IMG/VR virus record: IMGVR_UViG_3300010401_000005
Coordinates: 6,113-70,112 of that record
Direction: 5' to 3' (one strand)
DNA length: 64,000 nucleotides
Source of the DNA: a virus
Shown here: positions 48,683 to 58,625 of the stretch, piece after piece
Layout: each line of letters starts with the position of its first letter
How positions within the stretch are numbered: the stretch's first letter is position 1
Notes under the pieces: generated by a model
The model's database searches: none
Told to the model about the DNA's origin: nothing
What the model saw: only the letters and a program-made list of their open reading frames with translations
Position numbers and translations under genes: made by a program

Positions 48683-49404
48683 TACAGTGTCAACGTCAAG
48701 TTCGTGGTCGTGAACTGCGCCGTGTTGCCGGTATAGACGGCGCTGAAAAAGTCTATGATCGTCCTGAGCGTCAGCACCCCGCCCGCCGCCGCGTTGATGA
48801 GTGCTAGAATGCTTGCGTTAGTAGAAGGACTGCTAGGTGAGAAGGACGGGTCAAAATGCCCGTCACCTGTCACCACCTGACTACTCGCCACGCCCTCTAT
48901 AGAGGCAGGCGGCGAGAGTTCCAACTGAATCGGCACTCCTAAAATCGGGTAGGTATACGACCAATCGCCTGCCCATTGGAACGTAAAGGCGGTATAGGTT
49001 TGGGCAGGCACCGAGAAGGTGATATTCGGGCCTGTGAACGATGAAGCAATATCGTCACAGGTGATGACAAAACCCTGATTAGAGGCATACAGCACCACCA
49101 TGCTCGCGTCGGGGTTGGTGCCTCCGCCCGTGCCGCCCTCCGATGCAGGTGTATCCCTCCCCCCATTTGTCAGGAAAACCGAACCTCCTTGAATGTCTAC
49201 GGAGGACAACCCGACGCCCTGACCCTCTGTTTTATCCCAGTCGAAGCCGTTACCCGTGCCGTCTACCTGTGTGCCGTAGTCGTCCGTTACGATCAGGTCA
49301 GAGTAGGTCCAGAAGCCGGTTTGTTCGTCCTGCGTTCTGAACCCCTGCTGACGTAGTAACTGAGGGTTATTTCGGTAAGGTAGAGGGAATCTGCGTAATG
49401 GCAT
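48670..49404 (-). CDS. putative virion structural protein
   Basis: 244 aa, TAATG coupling. Confidence 0.65.
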   Translation of the reverse strand: MPLRRFPLPYRNNPQLLRQQGFRTQDEQTGFWTYSDLIVTDDYGTQVDGTGNGFDWDKTEGQGVGLSSVDIQGGSVFLTNGGRDTPASEGGTGGGTNPDASMVVLYASNQGFVITCDDIASSFTGPNITFSVPAQTYTAFTFQWAGDWSYTYPILGVPIQLELSPPASIEGVASSQVVTGDGHFDPSFSPSSPSTNASILALINAAAGGVLTLRTIIDFFSAVYTGNTAQFTTTNLTLTLYYNA

Positions 49405-49592
49405 TACTCGTCCTTTTCAGGATCTTCCACGGTAATTTCCACGGTTGGTGTGAACGCTATCTTCATGGCGTTGAATTCCATCAACGCGCCTCGGATCTCG
49501 TCCACCGCCTGCTTATCCTGTTCAAACGCCCTCTGCGCCAGCAGTTGACTGAGTTCAACACTCCGCTTCTCGATGTACTCTAAAACGTCCAT
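49404..49592 (-). CDS. small hypothetical protein
   Basis: AAAGGAG RBS, 62 aa. Confidence 0.65.
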   Translation of the reverse strand: MDVLEYIEKRSVELSQLLAQRAFEQDKQAVDEIRGALMEFNAMKIAFTPTVEITVEDPEKDE

Positions 49593-49692
49593 TGCATTCT
49601 CCTTTCAATGCGCCTTCGTTTAAGTTGTTACCGGGCAGAGCGGCGAAGGAAAGACCGCCTCTTCGGGCTGCACTCCCTAGCCCGGTAACGCA
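49593..49692 (-). promoter_or_regulatory. head-operon cis-RNA motif copy C (divergent)
   Basis: GTTACCGGGC/GCCCGGTAAC stem, TAGG...CCGAAG junction, inner loop CCTTCG complementary to downstream CGAAGG. Confidence 0.5.
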
Positions 49693-49694
49693 GT

Positions 49695-51374
49695 TTAGAC
49701 CGGAACGAGGGTCACGGAGACAATCGCGCCAGTGATGGAGCCAATCGTACCGCCCCACTTCACCGCTAACCGATCCCCTGCCGCAAGGGTCTTCGTCGCC
49801 ACGGTGGTAGTCACGCTTCCGACCACGCGCGTGTTCGCCGTGGTGTCAAAGGTCATCACGGCAGTAAGCACGCTCGTACCGCCGCCTGGGGCCGTGGTGC
49901 CGGTGTCCTTGATAACGTCCACGGTCGGAACCGTCGCCGTCGAGGAGCAGGAACAGGATGCTGCCTTCACGCGATAGGCACGGTTCGCCATGAAGAAGGT
50001 ATAGGAACTTCCCGACACCGGGACGCTTGCGGGCAGGTATTGCTGCCAGATCGCATCAAACAGCCCCGCCACAGAGTTCACCAACACTTCACCAGGCACA
50101 CCAGTACTGACTGCCGCGCCGGGGATAAGGTTGATGTTCCCACCCGCCGCCGTGCCGCCCGTACCACCCGCGCCTGCTGTCAGTGTGATCGCACCACCCG
50201 CGATAGAGCCGGAACCGTTGCCGCCCGCGCCTGCCGTGATGGTGACTGCGCCTGCCGCGCCGCCCGTCGTGGAACCCGTACCGCCCGCGCCCGCCGTGAT
50301 GGCAACCCCACCGCCCGCACCACCTGTGACGGCATTGGTTCCGCCGCCTGCGCCTGCGGAGAGGGTAAGCAATCCGCCTGCGCCTCCGGTGCCGGTAGAA
50401 GTGACGACTGCGCCACCTGCGCCCGTGGAGACCGTGACCGCCCCGCCTGCGCCACCCGTGGAGGTGCCAGAGGTACCGCCTGCATTGCTGCCGAGGGTGA
50501 CTGCCCCGGACGCACCGCCTGCGGTTCCGGTTGTGCCGGTTGCACCTGCTGCCGTGGTGATGGTCATGGCACCGGATGCCGCGCCTGCGCCTGCGGTTGG
50601 TGCGCCTGTCCCGATAGTCAGGACACCCGACGCGGAGGTTGTGCCGCCGACGCCGGTAGAGATTGCCACCGCCCCCGACAACCCACTTGTACCACCGGCA
50701 CCGGAGGTAATCGTTACCGCCCCTCCTGCGCCTGTGGTCGTGCCCACGCCGCCGATCATCGAAACCGCACCACCTGTGCCAGCCGTTGAGAGCGCCGCGC
50801 CTCCGGTGAGAGATGCTGCGCCGCCGTTACCCGTCGCGCCTGTTCCAGACCCACCGCCGATGACGCTTGCTGCGCCTCCTGCGCCGGTTCCAGCCGCACC
50901 GCCTGCACCACCGGTCAGGTTCACGGCACCACCCGCGCCGGAGGTGGTGCCACCTCTGCCGCCTGTGATACCGCCCGCGCCGCCAGCCCCGGTCAGATCC
51001 GCTGCGCCGCCTGTGAGAGTGGTTGCGCCACCGTTCCCGCTGCCTTTGCCGACGCCGCCCGTGCCGGTGACTGCCCCGCCCGCGCCGTTTGTGCTGAGTG
51101 CCGCACCGCCGACAGAGGTGACGGCACCACCTGCGCCGGTTGCGCCTGCACCCGACGCACCGCCTGTGATGACGACCGCACCGCCTGCAAACGCGCCATT
51201 TCCTGCGCCGCCTGTTGCCGTTGCGTTGCCGCCTGCACTGCTCGATCCCGCCGCGCCGATGATACCCGCTGTGGTGATGGTGGTGACGTTCACGCCGTTG
51301 AGTTGTATGATACCGGTGCCGTCCCCATCGGGTCCGTTCACGGCAAGGTTTGATAGATGCGTATATTCAGGCAT
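49695..51374 (-). CDS. Gly/Ala/Thr-rich repeat fibre protein
   Basis: >20 repeats of ~GGAVxITxGAG; directly after major capsid gene. Confidence 0.8.
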   Translation of the reverse strand: MPEYTHLSNLAVNGPDGDGTGIIQLNGVNVTTITTAGIIGAAGSSSAGGNATATGGAGNGAFAGGAVVITGGASGAGATGAGGAVTSVGGAALSTNGAGGAVTGTGGVGKGSGNGGATTLTGGAADLTGAGGAGGITGGRGGTTSGAGGAVNLTGGAGGAAGTGAGGAASVIGGGSGTGATGNGGAASLTGGAALSTAGTGGAVSMIGGVGTTTGAGGAVTITSGAGGTSGLSGAVAISTGVGGTTSASGVLTIGTGAPTAGAGAASGAMTITTAAGATGTTGTAGGASGAVTLGSNAGGTSGTSTGGAGGAVTVSTGAGGAVVTSTGTGGAGGLLTLSAGAGGGTNAVTGGAGGGVAITAGAGGTGSTTGGAAGAVTITAGAGGNGSGSIAGGAITLTAGAGGTGGTAAGGNINLIPGAAVSTGVPGEVLVNSVAGLFDAIWQQYLPASVPVSGSSYTFFMANRAYRVKAASCSCSSTATVPTVDVIKDTGTTAPGGGTSVLTAVMTFDTTANTRVVGSVTTTVATKTLAAGDRLAVKWGGTIGSITGAIVSVTLVPV

Positions 51375-51411
51375 TGCTCACTTCCTTTCTGCTTTATTGT
51401 AAGCAATGACA

Positions 51412-52350
51412 TTAAGCTCCTGCGTTTCCGTAGCAGCCCCTCCAGTCCGACGAACCACAGACAAAACGTGAAGTAGATACAAACACGTATGCCTGTACTC
51501 CAATCGCGTAATCGGTGGTGATTTCGGCCTCCTGCCGGATAAGGAACTGGAGGTAATGGTTATCCGCCACGATGAACCAACTGTTATTCGTGCCGGTGGA
51601 ACCCGATGCCTGGAAGTAGGGCCACTCGATAACGTCCGCATCGTTTTTGTAGATGTTGAGGTTTCGATCCGCCGTCCCTCTCTCCCAATCGCCGCGCATG
51701 ATCTGATTCGCCACGCGATGCAGGACAGGGTTCACCACCAATACACGCGGGTTGTTCTGCAAAAACTGCGTGTTGTTCGCGGCTTTCTGCTGCCGGATGT
51801 TCACCGCGCCCGCGTCATAGGTGGCAAAGGACAGGTCGCCGCCCGATGAGGCGCGATTGCTGACGGTTACGCCGCTATTGGCCTGACTGATCGGGTGCGC
51901 GGTGGAGAAGAGAGGCTGTCCGTCTGCCATCTGCGGGGTATTGTTGCCGACAGTGGCGAAGGCGATGTTTTTGAAGAAGTTCGCCGCCACGATCTCCTTG
52001 AGCGTCTGATGGGACACAGCCAACTGACCGCCCTTTGTGGGAAGGACTTTCGCCATGACGCCGTACTGGTCGTCCTTCCAGTCCTCGTACGCCAATATAT
52101 CACCGAGGGCGTAGTTGACCGGGGTGTACCGCTTACCGAAGGACGGCTTGAACTGACCCTGCGCGACGCCTTCACCGGGTCCACGGCGCAGCGGGAGACC
52201 GTACATCTCCCAGTTTTGTTCATCCGTATACCTGCCGTCCATTTGCCCCATGTGGAAAATCTGAGGCAGCACGGTCGGCCATGCGTCGTATGCTATTCCA
52301 AACTGCTTGGAGATGCCTTTGCTGAAAAGTGGAGTCAGGTCTTGACTCAT
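51412..52350 (-). CDS. major capsid protein (HK97 fold, Mu gpT-like annotation class)
   Basis: 312 aa; T.E..AAN, ADG.PLFST.HP, P..LVV.P.L, WF, DWRG.YG..GA. Confidence 0.85.
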   Translation of the reverse strand: MSQDLTPLFSKGISKQFGIAYDAWPTVLPQIFHMGQMDGRYTDEQNWEMYGLPLRRGPGEGVAQGQFKPSFGKRYTPVNYALGDILAYEDWKDDQYGVMAKVLPTKGGQLAVSHQTLKEIVAANFFKNIAFATVGNNTPQMADGQPLFSTAHPISQANSGVTVSNRASSGGDLSFATYDAGAVNIRQQKAANNTQFLQNNPRVLVVNPVLHRVANQIMRGDWERGTADRNLNIYKNDADVIEWPYFQASGSTGTNNSWFIVADNHYLQFLIRQEAEITTDYAIGVQAYVFVSTSRFVCGSSDWRGCYGNAGA

Positions 52351-52470
52351 CTGTGGTGAGGTTCCTTGTCCTCACTCGCCCTCGTGAAACGCGCCCTGAC
52401 AACGAATATCTATCCGGGGGAAAATCTCCAGGGCGGGAGAGTTTCAGGGGCCAGCCTATCCCCCGGAACT
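52351..52470 (-). promoter_or_regulatory. head-operon cis-RNA motif copy B
   Basis: TCCGGGGGA/TCCCCCGGA stem; TAGGCTGGCCCCTGAAA; TCTCC-CGCCCT-GGAGA; downstream AGGGCG; GTGAGG/CCTCAC around RBS. Confidence 0.7.
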
Positions 52471-52483
52471 GGTAACGCGGGGT

Positions 52484-53149
52484 TTACGTCGCCGCCGCGT
52501 AAAAGATACCGGTAAGGTACTGCTGATACGCAGGCTTGACCGAGAACAGGTACTTGCACTGCGTGGAGGAGACATTGAAGAACGGATCGGTCTCGTTGAC
52601 CGCCGTCACCTCGCCCACGATGTCGGCAGTGACCGAGGACTCATTTGCCGCAAAGTCCACGGTGTTGTAAGTCTGAATCCCGATGGTGTGGCCGATCTTG
52701 GTAGAGGAGACCGTCACCGCCGCATTACCCGACGCCTGCGCACGGATATAGAACTCGCTGTCGTCGTTGAACACCTGCACGAGCAGGCGGGCGTTGCCAG
52801 TCACGGGGTCAGTGTCGATACCTGCGGCGTAGGAGGGCAGAGGGTACTGCGGCGCGGCACCTGCGGCGACAGTAGAAGGTGGGGTGACGCCTCCGACCGG
52901 CGCACCTGCCGAATCGGTCTTCACGTCGTGCTTCGCCACGCCCAACAGTCCCGCCACGGAGGTGTTGGTAAAACTTGCGGCAATCATCGTGCTTGTCAGT
53001 TTGCAGACCCTTACCGTACTGTTGGCGTTGTTGAGAACAACGATGTCACCGGCGCTGATGGTCTGCGATACGTCCACGTCATAGCTTCGCGTCAGTCCCG
53101 CCCCCATATTGGAGGAGCCTGCACGCGCAAAATCAACAGAATGAGACAC
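52484..53149 (-). CDS. capsid decoration/cement protein
   Basis: I.AGDIV...LLGVA pattern; immediately upstream of MCP. Confidence 0.7.
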   Translation of the reverse strand: MSHSVDFARAGSSNMGAGLTRSYDVDVSQTISAGDIVVLNNANSTVRVCKLTSTMIAASFTNTSVAGLLGVAKHDVKTDSAGAPVGGVTPPSTVAAGAAPQYPLPSYAAGIDTDPVTGNARLLVQVFNDDSEFYIRAQASGNAAVTVSSTKIGHTIGIQTYNTVDFAANESSVTADIVGEVTAVNETDPFFNVSSTQCKYLFSVKPAYQQYLTGIFYAAAT

Positions 53150-53262
53150 TGTTCGTTTTGTCCTGTCTCACATCCCCCAAGTGAAGAACCCCATGCTATT
53201 ATCCGGCAACGGGCCTCCGGGGTGGGAGGCTTTCAGTGATCAGCCTAAGATGCCGGATATAT
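53150..53262 (-). promoter_or_regulatory. head-operon cis-RNA motif copy A
   Basis: TATCCGGCA/TGCCGGATA stem; TAGGCTGATCACTGAAA; GCCTCC-CACCCC-GGAGGC; downstream GGGGT; TGAGACA/TGTCTCA over start codon. Confidence 0.7.
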
Positions 53263-53264
53263 GA

Positions 53265-54032
53265 TTAACCTTTTCGCGCAGCCGCCGCAGCCATCGTATT
53301 GCGCGGCCTCACGCCCGCAGGGATGGACACGATCTTCCCGCCTCCCTGTGATTGCCTGTAGGCTTCTTGTCTATCCCCCCGTGCGCCCTCCTGGGTCTCG
53401 GAGCGTGTAGGCGTCTGATGGCGTCCTCCGTTGCGGTACTTCGCCTGTTCCGCCTCGTAACGTTCCTTGCCAATCTGCTTGACGACCATCTCCACCGGCA
53501 TACCCGCAAACTGACCGCCGATCAGACCCGCCTGCACGTTGCGTTGATGCTGCTGTTGTGCGCGTGCGCCGTACTGACCGGGTTCGATCTTAAAGCGGGG
53601 GATCTCGGCAAACTCCGTCTCTTCCGGGTTCTCGGTCTGCGCGTCGAATTCCGCCGTTTCCCTCTGTCGCTGACGTTCACGCTCCTCGAACAAGGCGCGG
53701 GGCATAGCAGCAACCAACGTGTCGCCGTGGATGAAGGGATGGCCTTTTTCGTCGGTCAAGATCCTGCCACCTGGTGTCTCACGCTTGAACTCCCGCGAAC
53801 GGTCCTTATGCTCGTATTGCTGCCACTCTGCCGGGTTGCGGATATAGGTGATAACCTCATCGTCCCGGACACCCATATCCTTCAACTCTTCGGGGGTACG
53901 GCTGAATTCGTCCCACCCATCGGGCAGCAAGTCGCGTGTCTCACCCGAAAGCAGCGGGGGCGTGTTATCGACGGTCTTTTCGTGCATCTTCGTGCCGGTG
54001 CCGGGTTGTGGTCCCGGTAATCCTGGTCGCAT
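53265..54032 (-). CDS. hypothetical head-module protein
   Basis: AGGAG RBS; between scaffold and decoration genes. Confidence 0.7.
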   Translation of the reverse strand: MRPGLPGPQPGTGTKMHEKTVDNTPPLLSGETRDLLPDGWDEFSRTPEELKDMGVRDDEVITYIRNPAEWQQYEHKDRSREFKRETPGGRILTDEKGHPFIHGDTLVAAMPRALFEERERQRQRETAEFDAQTENPEETEFAEIPRFKIEPGQYGARAQQQHQRNVQAGLIGGQFAGMPVEMVVKQIGKERYEAEQAKYRNGGRHQTPTRSETQEGARGDRQEAYRQSQGGGKIVSIPAGVRPRNTMAAAAARKG

Positions 54033-54891: not shown

Positions 54892-56709
54892 TCTCCTCGT
54901 TGCGGGCTTCCCGCGTCTGTCGGTTCACTTCGAGTGCCACCATCTGCGCGGGGGTCTTTATCATGGCGTCCAGTGCCTTCGCCTGTCCCTGCATGAAACG
55001 AAACTCTTCTGCCGTCTTCGCCTCCATCAACTTCTCAAGAGCGTTCTGACGAAGGGCAAAATAATAAGGGTAGATTTCCTGTGTCCAGATGTCGGAGTAC
55101 AGAATGCGTTCCCAATTCGGCTGACGCTCCAGGTTATCGGGCGGCGTGAGTTCGATGACGGGCACGGTGGATTCGGGTTCAGGTTTTTGCCACCAGAAGC
55201 GCATTACTCTTCTCCCTCGAATCCCTCATCGGTATCATGGTTGCCGCTCAAGTGGTCGTGAATAAACTTCTGCGCCATGCCGACGCAGGTAAAACCGCCG
55301 CCGTAAAAGGCATTGCGAACCCGTTCTACGCCTTCATTACCTGCTTTGTCGTCCACATCCATCACGCAAACCAGAAGGGCGCGGTGACGGGTCTTCAGTT
55401 CGTCAATGAGTTCTTGTGACGAAGCCACGGCAAGCGGATTGATGACAAAAGTATCCTCACCCATTACGGCGTATCCTCTTTCTTGGTACTCTGATTCACC
55501 ACCTTGCCCGTACCACGACAGGAAGCGCACTTCTTCGCGCCCTTCATGCCCGTGCCCTTACACGCCGAACAGGATTTTGCTTTCTTCAAGGCGATCTCCC
55601 TACAACCACACAAACTGAATAATCGTCGTATTCGCGCACAGAAGCCCAAACGCAAAGGACTGCGACGGATCAATAGACAGCCAACAGGTCTGCGTCTTGT
55701 GCAGATACAAATGGGTTACATCACCCGATTCACCCTTTAGAACTATGGTCCCGGTGTTGTCGGAGGGTGGCTGAATCCCCACCTTGACCGCGCCCGTCTG
55801 CACCGTAATTGCCGCAAAGGTGTTGGCGACAAAGGTCTGCTGCGTGCGGGTCTGAGGCGCGGCGGCGTTGGTCTCGGTCGGTACGTCGGCATGGTCGGTC
55901 TCGTTACCGGCGAGGTTGGTTTTCGTCCACGATGCGTTAAAGGTGCTGGATGCTGCCATTTACTTCGCCTCTCCGAAAATGTTGATCGCCTTCACCACTT
56001 CACCGGGTTTGCGTCCATACCCGAATTCGTTCATTGCGCCCCGCTTTTTGGCTTGCCCCCATGCCCATGACAGGAGAACCATATCTGCGCTTTCCTGATC
56101 CTGCATGACCGGGATTCGCACCACATCGGGCAATTCTTCCGCCGCAACTATCGCCAACAGGCAATCGTATGCTTCGCCCTTCTGCCGTTTGTCAATGTCC
56201 TTGTAGAAAATCATCTCCCACGTCAGACATTTGGCTTCCCAATGGGCCTCAGCGGAAATCCCCGATTCGAGTTCGATCAATGGCATCAGTTTTTTGCCTT
56301 CTTACCCTTCAAAACCCGGTTCGCTTTCGCGTCTACGGTCGCCTTCTGTGCAGGCGTCAGGTTCCCCTTTGCCTCTTGCTGCGTTGCGCGGGCTTTTGCG
56401 TTCGCTGCGTGCGCCCTGTCGCCGGGAGGGATCGGATATTTGCGCTCCGAAGGTAAGGCGAAATCAGATTTGGGCAAGGCTTTGCGTCTTGCAGTCGAAA
56501 ACTTGCTCATCTCTCCGAACTCCCCTTTCTTTCCAGAACTCTGCCGACATTCGGTCAAGAAAATCCGTTCGATGTACGTCCAACGCTTCGGAAATATCAC
56601 GCATCGCATATTGAACAGGCGTATAACCGCGAAACAGATCGTCAGCAATATCGTCAATGCTGCACGGTTCCCAATAGGGCAACGAATCAGGCCAAATGTA
56701 AGAACTCAT
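54827..56709 (-). CDS. small genes between portal and scaffold (54827-55204, 55204-55464, 55464-55589 CxxCxGxG, 55600-55959, 55960-56286, 56286-56510 basic, 56464-56709)
   Basis: TAATG/ATGA coupling; 56286-56510 has RKALPKSDFALP..RKYPI...HA.NA.AR motif. Confidence 0.6.
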
Positions 56710-58625
56710 TGCTGTAACAACGCTCCCCCACTCCCCGCAGGAGCGGTATTCAACCCACCCTGAGACGCCAATATCTGCTGTATCACCTGCGGCGGCACAC
56801 CCGACGCCACCAACTGCGCGATATTGGCCGGAAGTTCCTGCGGTTGTGGCATCTGTGGCTCCGGGCCTATCCACTCCTCCGGTTGCCGTTCCCCCATATC
56901 CAAGAGGGCTTGACGCACGCCGTGCCAAATCAACGGCGCGAACTGGGGGCTGATCTGCATGACCTGCGCGAGTGCAGCGAAATAGCCCATCTGGGCCTGA
57001 ATCTTCGCCTGTGTCAACTTCAACCGCATCTCCGGTGTCACGGTCGTGCTTGTAGCAGTAGGGACGTAGCGGTACAGCCCCCGCATGTTCTGCGCACTCA
57101 CTTCCATCTGCTTGCCCTGATAGTTGAAACTCTCCTGCAACCCTTCGCCCTCAAACTGCGCATGCAATGCCACAATGCGGGCGGCTAACTCCTCCATGCT
57201 GCTTTGAAAGCCTTGAAGGAAGAGGTCGAACTTGGAGTCGGTGGCGGCAAGGACGTTCTGAATCTCCGCATCCTTGCGAACCTTCGCCTGCAACTCCCCA
57301 TACCCTTCCGCTGCTACAAGCCCTTTGCCTCTCCCGACAATCGCGCCTTGTAACTCCATGCCTTTTTCGGCCTTACTGCCCCATTCCAGCGTCCGCAGGG
57401 TGTTCGGGTCGTCTTCGGGCAGTATCGCGCCGGGGTAGATGCTGAACGCGTTGTACTTTTGAATCCACTCCGCAGGGGCTACGAGTACCGGTGCCATCTC
57501 CAGGTCCATGCCATCTATGGTCAACTGAAGGTTTGCGTTCGCTTCATCTTGGAGCGTCGCCAGCAGTTGCATAGCACCGATTCCGAGCAGGCGATTCGGA
57601 CGCGGGAGCATCGAAAAACTGATGTATGGCCGATCCGTGTAGGGTGATATGTCCATCAGGAACACAATCTGCTGTTGAGGGCATAACATACACATCAGGT
57701 CATCGGCCCTATACTGCTCCGGTATGGCGTCTTCATCGTCGCGCAGTTTCGGCATACGCCCGAAGTAGAGGAAGCACTCATAAAAACCGTCTTCGCGCAC
57801 ACTGGCGTTGTTCGAGGTGCCGTCGTATTCGTTGCGCACCGTCCGCAGTAAGTCGCCGCCCATAGAGTGCGTGGGGCCGAGGCGAATCAACTCTTCTACT
57901 GCCTCTTCGTCATAGCCATAATCCACCACACCGTCTAAAAGCTGATCCTCAGTGAGAAGCATCCTCTCACCGATACCGTAGGCGGTCTTGATGTCCTGAC
58001 AGTCCGCAGGATAGAGGTAAATATCCGCTAAATCGGGTGTCCGAAACTCACAGCCCTGATGCGCGACTTCCTGCTGCTCGACTACCGCTTCTTCGTACTC
58101 CCGATCCTCTTCCCTCTGATGCCCCTCTACCAGCGGCATATCCGGGAATTCACTGTCGCGGAACATGCGTTTGCGAACAGGGCGAACCGTCTGCTTCCAT
58201 CCCACAAACAACACCCCGCAAGGGTCTCTGAGGGCATTGTAGGCGACATTGTAGAGGATATTGTTCAGGCGGTACTCTGCCGCCTTGTTGGTCAGCCACG
58301 CTTCTTGTAGTGTGGCGTTCTCGTCATCACCGGGATTCTGCGCAATCACCTGCCACTTCGGGTCTTTGCGTTGCGCCTGAGTGAGTAAAGCGAGTAATTC
58401 TAAGTGCGCCTCTCGACTCATCGGGTCATTGAGGATGCAGGCACCGCGCCAACGCTTGTCGCCGTAGGGCTGGATACGCCCTTCCAGTTGATCGTCGAGT
58501 TGCAGGAGGAGAATATCCCTTTCCTGCGCGCCTGCAATGGCGTCGTTCATGCGTTGACAGAGGATGCGCTTCACCTGTTCAGTGGCGTAGGGTTTGAGTT
58601 CGAGTTGGATCAACGCTTCTGGCAT
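56706..58625 (-). CDS. portal protein (podovirus type)
   Basis: 639 aa; GVLFVGW, DIYLYP, PY.......P..L.G.G...L...QD..N, Gln/Pro-rich tail. Confidence 0.85.
   Translation of the reverse strand: MPEALIQLELKPYATEQVKRILCQRMNDAIAGAQERDILLLQLDDQLEGRIQPYGDKRWRGACILNDPMSREAHLELLALLTQAQRKDPKWQVIAQNPGDDENATLQEAWLTNKAAEYRLNNILYNVAYNALRDPCGVLFVGWKQTVRPVRKRMFRDSEFPDMPLVEGHQREEDREYEEAVVEQQEVAHQGCEFRTPDLADIYLYPADCQDIKTAYGIGERMLLTEDQLLDGVVDYGYDEEAVEELIRLGPTHSMGGDLLRTVRNEYDGTSNNASVREDGFYECFLYFGRMPKLRDDEDAIPEQYRADDLMCMLCPQQQIVFLMDISPYTDRPYISFSMLPRPNRLLGIGAMQLLATLQDEANANLQLTIDGMDLEMAPVLVAPAEWIQKYNAFSIYPGAILPEDDPNTLRTLEWGSKAEKGMELQGAIVGRGKGLVAAEGYGELQAKVRKDAEIQNVLAATDSKFDLFLQGFQSSMEELAARIVALHAQFEGEGLQESFNYQGKQMEVSAQNMRGLYRYVPTATSTTVTPEMRLKLTQAKIQAQMGYFAALAQVMQISPQFAPLIWHGVRQALLDMGERQPEEWIGPEPQMPQPQELPANIAQLVASGVPPQVIQQILASQGGLNTAPAGSGGALLQQ

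Follow-up and report, generated by a model that had tools for sequence, protein, structure and literature searches.

Candidate int-alpA family leader RNAs ahead of three head-module genes of a terminally repeated phage

A structured RNA element occurs three times (copies A, B, and C) in the head module of a phage represented by IMG/VR record IMGVR_UViG_3300010401_000005, a 70,112-bp genome with direct terminal repeats that is rated complete and of which a 64-kb stretch (the window) was analyzed. Judged from sequence and architecture, all three are best placed in the int-alpA family (Rfam RF02996) as leaders that act in cis, and they are not a new RNA class. As had been predicted from the letters alone, each lies on the coding (minus) strand directly ahead of a head-module gene: copy A (53142-53259) ahead of a gene for a 221-aa protein, copy B (52348-52467) ahead of the major capsid gene, and copy C (49590-49689) ahead of a 62-aa open reading frame (ORF). 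All three are intergenic, and all window coordinates below refer to the minus strand. Comparison with members found elsewhere establishes the fold, its covariation, two pairing sites for one loop, and the position and orientation of the element relative to genes. With a confidence slightly better than even, we favor a mechanism in which the element would act as an mRNA leader that sets translation initiation in cis through the partner chosen by its P3 loop, directly in copy C and by way of a relay in copies A and B.

Anatomy and family identity of the three copies

The three copies share a three-way junction and a P3 loop that is complementary to the copy's own downstream tail. In each of them UAG follows P1 and GAAA(A) precedes P3 inside the multi-stem junction that P1 encloses; in A and B the conserved junction comprises 17 nt, UAGGCUG..C.CUGAAA. 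P2 consists of three pairs and one non-standard pair in copy C and of UAG/CUG only in A and B. The stem, loop, and tail letters quoted in the original prediction were all found on the minus strand where it had placed them, including the loop/tail complements ACCCC/GGGGU (A), CGCCCU/AGGGCG (B), and CCUUCG/CGAAGG (C), which also withstand permutation across the family (0/2000; see below).

Copy C is a canonical int-alpA RNA (49613..49689), matching RF02996 over the full model (1-71) with 40.7 bits against a cut-off of 35.8. The original prediction had recognized no known class; the Rfam scan that it proposed as a check returns a known family for this copy. P1 is formed by GTTACCGGGC/GCCCGGTAAC (49689-49680 with 49636-49627), followed by P2 (49677-49665) and P3 (49659-49639), the loop of which, TCTTTCCTTCG, contains CCTTCG. 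This loop can pair with CGAAGG at 49618-49613 (site 1; −8.6 kcal/mol) and with the Shine-Dalgarno (SD) sequence AAGGAG (−7.2 kcal/mol), which is presented in the loop of hairpin P4 (GCATT/AATGC, 49590..49611). The ATG of the 62-aa ORF (49592-49590) follows 6 nt past the SD.

The cores of copies A (53200..53259) and B (52413..52467) were defined from their letters, from folding, from two covariance models (R1, built from A and B, and R2, described below), and from covariation. In copy A, P1 is TCCGGCA/TGCCGGA (53257-53251 with 53208-53202), the junction is TAGGCTGATCACTGAAA (53247-53231), and the P3 hairpin GCCTCC/GGAGGC (53230-53213) carries the loop CACCCC (53224-53219). Site 1, GGGGT (53188..53192), lies 8 nt past P1' (the 3' strand of P1), and site 2, GGGGG (53178-53174), lies inside the loop TTGGGGGAT of a hairpin P4a (TTCAC/GTGAG, 53167..53185); the P3 loop pairs almost equally well with both (−9.6 and −9.3 kcal/mol). 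A further hairpin, P5 (TGAGACA/TGTCTCA, 53142..53170), shares GAG with P4a, has AGGA in its loop, and includes the TG of the GTG start codon (53149-53147) in its 3' arm.

Copy B is built alike, with P1 TCCGGGGGA/TCCCCCGGA (52467-52459 with 52421-52413), junction TAGGCTGGCCCCTGAAA (52458-52442), and a P3 hairpin TCTCC/GGAGA (52440-52425) with the loop CGCCCT (52435-52430). The word AGGGCG occurs twice in its tail, as site 1 (52392..52397; −14.7 kcal/mol) and as site 2 (52382-52377; −13.8 kcal/mol), the latter again inside the loop of a P4a hairpin (TTCAC/GTGAG, 52371..52388). The P5 region (52348..52375) includes the capsid ATG (52350-52348), and the P5 hairpin itself (GTGAGG/CCTCAC, 52375-52356) holds AAGGAA in its loop. 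Thus, the TTCAC...GTGAG hairpins and the competing hairpins of the original prediction are present in both copies, the alternative hairpin lying over the start codon in A and around the SD in B. In tail folds, P5 is favored over P4a by about 3 kcal/mol, and it is also the stronger of the two as a lone hairpin (−8.4 versus −2.9 kcal/mol in A and −7.7 versus −4.6 kcal/mol in B).

When the genome was scanned with Rfam, C alone of the three copies gave a match. Nevertheless, 11 of the 23 other carriers of the A/B junction word pass the RF02996 cut-off (9 of 14 genome loci and 2 of 9 viral members judged by eye, these two being L083 and L062, with 10 viral loci tested). Since the junction is common to members that Rfam itself scores, the A/B junction is mainstream int-alpA, and A and B count by their architecture as members overlooked by the curated model.

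The elements are also set apart from the rest of the phage DNA. The exact word TAGGCTG..C.CTGAAA occurs twice in the 64 kb, and four other matches need three mismatches. Over the full 70,112 bp of the genome, model R1 gives no match besides A and B. A descriptor that asks for P1, TAG, GAA, P3, and pairing between loop and tail picks out these three copies and nothing else, each on the minus (coding) strand, while 10 block-shuffled windows yielded 0 to 2 matches (mean 0.8). In minimum free energy folding each of the three cores adopts the three-way junction, and against 200 shuffles copy A is a clear outlier (z −3.80, 0/200 as good).

Covariation and the two pairing sites across the family

Family members were collected through the junction word. 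Among viral contigs it retrieved 112 stretches, mostly chance matches, of which 9 have the full layout by eye, and a tighter word applied to one genome per species retrieved 39 stretches, 11 to 14 of them with the layout. A script parsed 153 pattern matches. Loose limits pass 46 of these, many clearly by chance, and strict limits pass 22, namely, the two window copies, 19 convincing members, and L063, which is likely false; L223 and L228 fell outside the strict limits though R2 scores both. Because P1 3' strands were out of register in MAFFT alignments of the cores, these were not used for counts, and 25 carriers were instead aligned with model R2.

In the R2 alignment 95.3% of the cells pair, compared with 63.6% in shuffles (0/500) and 33 to 46% in slid controls. 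Both sides change in 13 of the 16 pairs, namely, in every pair of P1 (7) and of P3 (6), in agreement with the predicted structured RNA with covarying stems. At the same time, the 17-nt junction is kept letter for letter in islands of Burkholderiales, Planctomycetaceae, Acidobacteriota, Lonepinella, and others, as well as in several phages, while stems and loop words vary. The P3 loop is matched to its own tail: over 19 non-redundant rows the mean score against the 30-nt tail is 6.58, compared with 4.93 for permuted tails (maximum, 5.84; 0/2000) and 4.33 for shuffled own tails (0/2000).

A same-strand ORF starts 15 to 40 nt past P1' in 19 of the 20 non-window rows that pass the strict limits. 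Such a fixed strand and ORF-proximal position argues for a cis leader rather than a small RNA (sRNA), and so does the match of the loop to the start region of its own gene, which scores 5.0 versus 4.15 for permuted pairs (0/5000, n = 18) and, with one row kept per distinct loop, 5.41 versus 4.41 (3/5000, n = 11). In 16 of 18 members a small hairpin with a GG word in its loop stands just before the start codon. The clearest double match is that of L093 (6010-6112, minus strand), whose P3 loop, UCAUGUUCA, is not of the SD type and has two perfect 9-nt partners: the word UGAACAUGA occurs 8 nt past P1' and again over the start codon of the gene for a Rha-like regulator. The genes behind the 18 other leaders encode this Rha-like regulator, one KilA-N/P63C protein, and 16 proteins without a Pfam family. 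None is recognizably structural, and a leader before a major capsid gene is therefore unusual in this sample.

Other features of these loci were noted. In L021 (1792-1815, minus strand), L022, and L111, an extended −10 box (TG-n-TATAAT) ends 6 to 7 nt before P1, which would place the leader at the very 5' end of the mRNA; no such box was found before the window copies. C4 antisense RNA was detected in the same loci as int-alpA leaders in L062 (8152-8392), L208 (986-1069), and L219 (4985-5073), and L062 contains its a1/b1 target family as well. The bacterial islands L205, L208, L209, L214, L223, and L227 are flanked by tRNA or tmRNA genes. A Frankia record (L213, 2079-2130, minus strand) has P1 and P3, with GGAGG in the P1 3' strand and ATG 1 nt farther on, and lacks a pseudoknot with the tail; this could be a variant that acts by direct occlusion, or the word may match by chance.

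Proposed mechanism and alternatives

In the mechanism that we favor, P1, a short or vestigial P2, and P3 would form the three-way junction around the conserved UAG ... GAAA letters, and P3 would display a loop word that is specific to each copy and has two possible partners in the tail. Site 1, located 6 to 13 nt past P1, would act as a decoy; site 2 is closer to the gene. Copy C conforms to what most family members show: there the SD, presented in the loop of the small hairpin before the start codon, would serve as site 2. Pairing of the P3 loop with the SD would block the ribosome, and its pairing with the decoy would leave the ribosome access. Translation would thus be the output, the decoy-paired form the ON state, and some influence, if any, would tip the balance between the two.

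In copies A and B, site 2 is not the SD; it lies in the loop of the weak P4a, which has GUGAG in common with the stronger P5, and P5 contains the start codon (A) or the SD (B). Pairing of the P3 loop with site 2 would stabilize P4a at the expense of P5, so that the choice of partner would be relayed to the start region. P5 resembles the hairpin that presents the SD in other members, and P4a seems to be a relay added in these two copies.

Several points weigh against this mechanism or against the evidence that it draws on. The P3 loops of A and B pair with the real SDs by only −2.2 and −3.4 kcal/mol, respectively, so that a simple occlusion model fails there, and the relay that would replace it is inferred from two sequences. 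Across the family, the loop/start-region score is at least 5 in only 10 of 18 members, and C-rich loops together with G-rich SDs inflate such scores generally. The cores of B (z −1.25, 26/200) and C (z −1.62, 12/200) fold no better than many shuffles; as only A stands out in single-sequence folding, the case rests on comparison. The 25-carrier alignment is fitted to the model, by which pairing is favored, and in it P2 (UAG/CUG) is invariant and carries no covariation information. The members were found through one junction word and are therefore a biased sample, in which the Burkholderiales rows, like the L015-type rows, are interrelated. Copies A and B receive no int-alpA score, even at E ≤ 10, on stretches of 4.3 kb and 891 nt. 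Finally, the more distant relatives L201, L196, L197, and L199 have plain short gaps and no leader before the capsid gene.

An unlikely alternative is that the element governs mRNA processing or stability, the knotted fold 5' of each cistron guarding it against RNase E or a 5' exonuclease or marking a processing site, with segmental stability in the head operon as the result. A three-way junction combined with a loop-to-downstream pseudoknot is the topology of exonuclease-resistant RNAs, each window copy begins 5 to 16 nt past the upstream stop codon, and in L021, L022, and L111 the folds would be 5'-terminal, given the −10 box 6 to 7 nt upstream. Such a role accounts for site 1 but not for site 2 or its match to the start region, it leaves the SD-presenting hairpin and the competition between P4a and P5 unexplained, and a P1 of 7 to 10 bp is too short for a classical RNase III site.

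It is rather improbable that the element is a true riboswitch or factor-sensing switch, in which the invariant junction would be a pocket or dock where a small molecule, the ribosome, or a protein of phage or host binds and thereby picks the site for the loop. A junction that stays letter-perfect across islands and phages while stems and loop words change speaks for such a switch, and A and B each offer the two partners of nearly equal energy that switching requires. However, no ligand is indicated, and the downstream genes share no pathway, unlike those of classical riboswitches (capsid, cement-like, and 62-aa proteins in the window; Rha-like, KilA-N/P63C, and proteins without a Pfam family elsewhere). 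No Rfam riboswitch model matches; the only riboswitch row was that of the Na+ model, with 14.3 bits against a cut-off of 40.5, on the opposite strand and at a chance-level hairpin. Four junction letters differ in B and another junction type is found in C, yet the layout is kept. The proposal of the original prediction that a ligand or a scaffold or capsid protein is sensed to set capsid stoichiometry gains no support here, as the leader precedes unrelated genes elsewhere.

It is highly doubtful that the element works in trans as an sRNA, perhaps cut from the leader and acting like the C4/CI antisense RNAs of P1 and P4, for all that Rfam types int-alpA as "Gene; sRNA" and that C4 matches share the loci of L062, L208, and L219: the strand and distance to the downstream ORF are fixed, both loop targets lie within about 60 nt of the same transcript, each loop word is matched to its own tail, and neither promoter nor terminator signals were found around the window copies. 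C4 itself is encoded within the operon that it represses (PMC8198154).

Other candidates were rejected. Coupling to a leader ORF does not hold, as the frame opened by a GTG behind site 2 runs for 13 codons in A but, in a different frame, for 51 in B; readthrough of the stop codon meets an in-frame stop about 20 codons on; and melting of P1 by a terminating ribosome is at odds with inconsistent gaps of 5 to 27 nt. A hammerhead-like core was dismissed since CUGAUCA differs from CUGAUGA and no Rfam match was obtained; a resemblance between GAUCAC and the 3' end of 16S rRNA was also dismissed, since it is absent in B.

Such leaders would have partial parallels in known systems. The C4 antisense RNA of phages P1 and P7 (Rfam RF01695 and RF03163), with its a1/b1 and a2/b2 sites, is likewise a folded RNA from its target's own transcript, and its loops match two sets of sites, one of them over the ribosome-binding site of the next gene. 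It differs in that no sequence or model match to it exists here; moreover, C4 undergoes processing and has a trans-acting role in immunity as well, whereas the loop and both sites are here contained in one leader of roughly 130 nt. Other parallels are pseudoknot riboswitches and leaders that sequester the ribosome-binding site, preQ1-II and SAM-II among them. As in these, the loop or tail pairing includes or controls the SD; unlike these, the window leaders have no known ligand or coherent regulon and possess a built-in decoy site.

The head module, related phages, and the wider family

The head module is encoded on the minus strand and comprises the portal, 255-aa, 221-aa, capsid, 559-aa, and 62-aa ORFs of what we take to be a virulent soil phage. 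The portal gene (56706-58625) matches PF23899. Copy A follows the 255-aa ORF (53265-54032), copy B the 221-aa ORF, and copy C the 559-aa ORF (49695-51374), which is rich in Gly, Ala, and Thr and comes immediately behind the capsid gene; its product, to which Pfam and PHROG searches assigned no family, may be a head fiber or decoration protein. The gene behind copy B (51412-52350) encodes a Mu gpT-like major capsid protein, as indicated by PF10124 (1.3e−08), by the PHROG head families phrog_4523 and phrog_371, and by relatives. For the 62-aa ORF behind copy C (49404-49592), Pfam and PHROG searches gave no family. Neither sigma-70-like promoters nor intrinsic terminators were detected at the copies on the minus strand.

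The gene behind copy A (52484-53149) had been called a decoration gene in the original prediction. Its product possibly is a cement or decoration protein, in that the protein atlas gives a weak indication of cement proteins of phages (feature scores of 0.86 to 0.87; template-modeling score [TM], 0.51); Pfam and PHROG searches returned no family to back that name, and the AlphaFold model is too poor for a fold search (mean predicted local distance difference test score [pLDDT], 36.3), so that the assignment is a lead only. The database call starts this gene at ATG 53107 (207 aa), and GTG 53149-53147 lies further upstream. The GTG is likely the true start because the upstream MSHS..ARA stretch is kept in two relatives.

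GenBank phages reach no more than 29% identity, and when viral contigs were scanned with the capsid protein as the single query, no relative was found. The closest relatives at the protein level are P0002-P0008 and P0025-P0027; among them, P0025 is an 88%-identical cement-like protein encoded on a contig of 69.5 kb, and P0003 and P0026 belong to one of 20.6 kb. Two loci encoding capsids 54 to 56% identical to that of the window, L194 (339-447, plus strand) and L195 (150-268, plus strand), have a three-way junction before the capsid gene, with a loop that has a tail complement and long tails of about 49 and 63 nt. These leaders have other junction letters and were matched by neither Rfam, R1, nor R2. 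A scan of the metagenome and viral loci of capsid relatives with Rfam gave no match; among the capsid-relative loci R1 gave only a weak match in L196 (8889-8947, plus strand; E 0.025), situated 3 kb past the capsid gene in this 42%-identical relative, and R2 gave none on L194, L195, L196, and L201.

The int-alpA motif reportedly comes from the 2017 survey of Weinberg et al., and it presumably owes its name to neighboring integrase and alpA genes. The name int-alpA is absent from the main text of that paper (Weinberg et al. 2017, PMC5737381), and literature searches by family name or by accession (RF02996) found nothing about the function of the RNA; the family is catalogued yet functionally unstudied. 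The window copies have in common with it the three-stem junction, the UAG and GAAA letters, and a C/U-rich P3 loop that pairs with the tail. They depart from it in that the Rfam model does not pick up A and B, which have a vestigial P2, carry tails 20 to 30 nt longer (gene starts 50 and 62 nt past P1', respectively, compared with 15 to 40 nt), and have their second site elsewhere than at the SD. The setting differs as well: two of the genes served are head genes of a terminally repeated phage whose 70,112-bp genome gave no match to AlpA (PF05930) or tyrosine integrase (PF00589). New here are the second loop complement of A and B, placed in an extra hairpin that competes with the start-codon or SD hairpin, and the occurrence of two copies below the Rfam threshold as leaders before core head genes of a non-integrating phage.

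A more far-reaching and improbable reading is that a conserved factor docks on the letter-perfect int-alpA junction, be it a small molecule, the 30S subunit, or a protein of the phage, and that the family would be a widespread and unrecognized translational switch of phages and mobile elements. Three copies with orthogonal loop/site pairs, two of them with a relay hairpin, would then put the cement-like, major capsid, and small head-module proteins of this phage under one signal.

The family, typed as an sRNA, is argued here to be a cis-acting translation leader, on the strength of its fixed position before an ORF and of loop words that co-vary with both the decoy and the start region; here, too, the data favor a cis leader where the Rfam label says sRNA. 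With A and B missed by the Rfam model and a leader used for head genes in the absence of an integrase, int-alpA would be wider than its name and model suggest and would not be tied to integrative elements.

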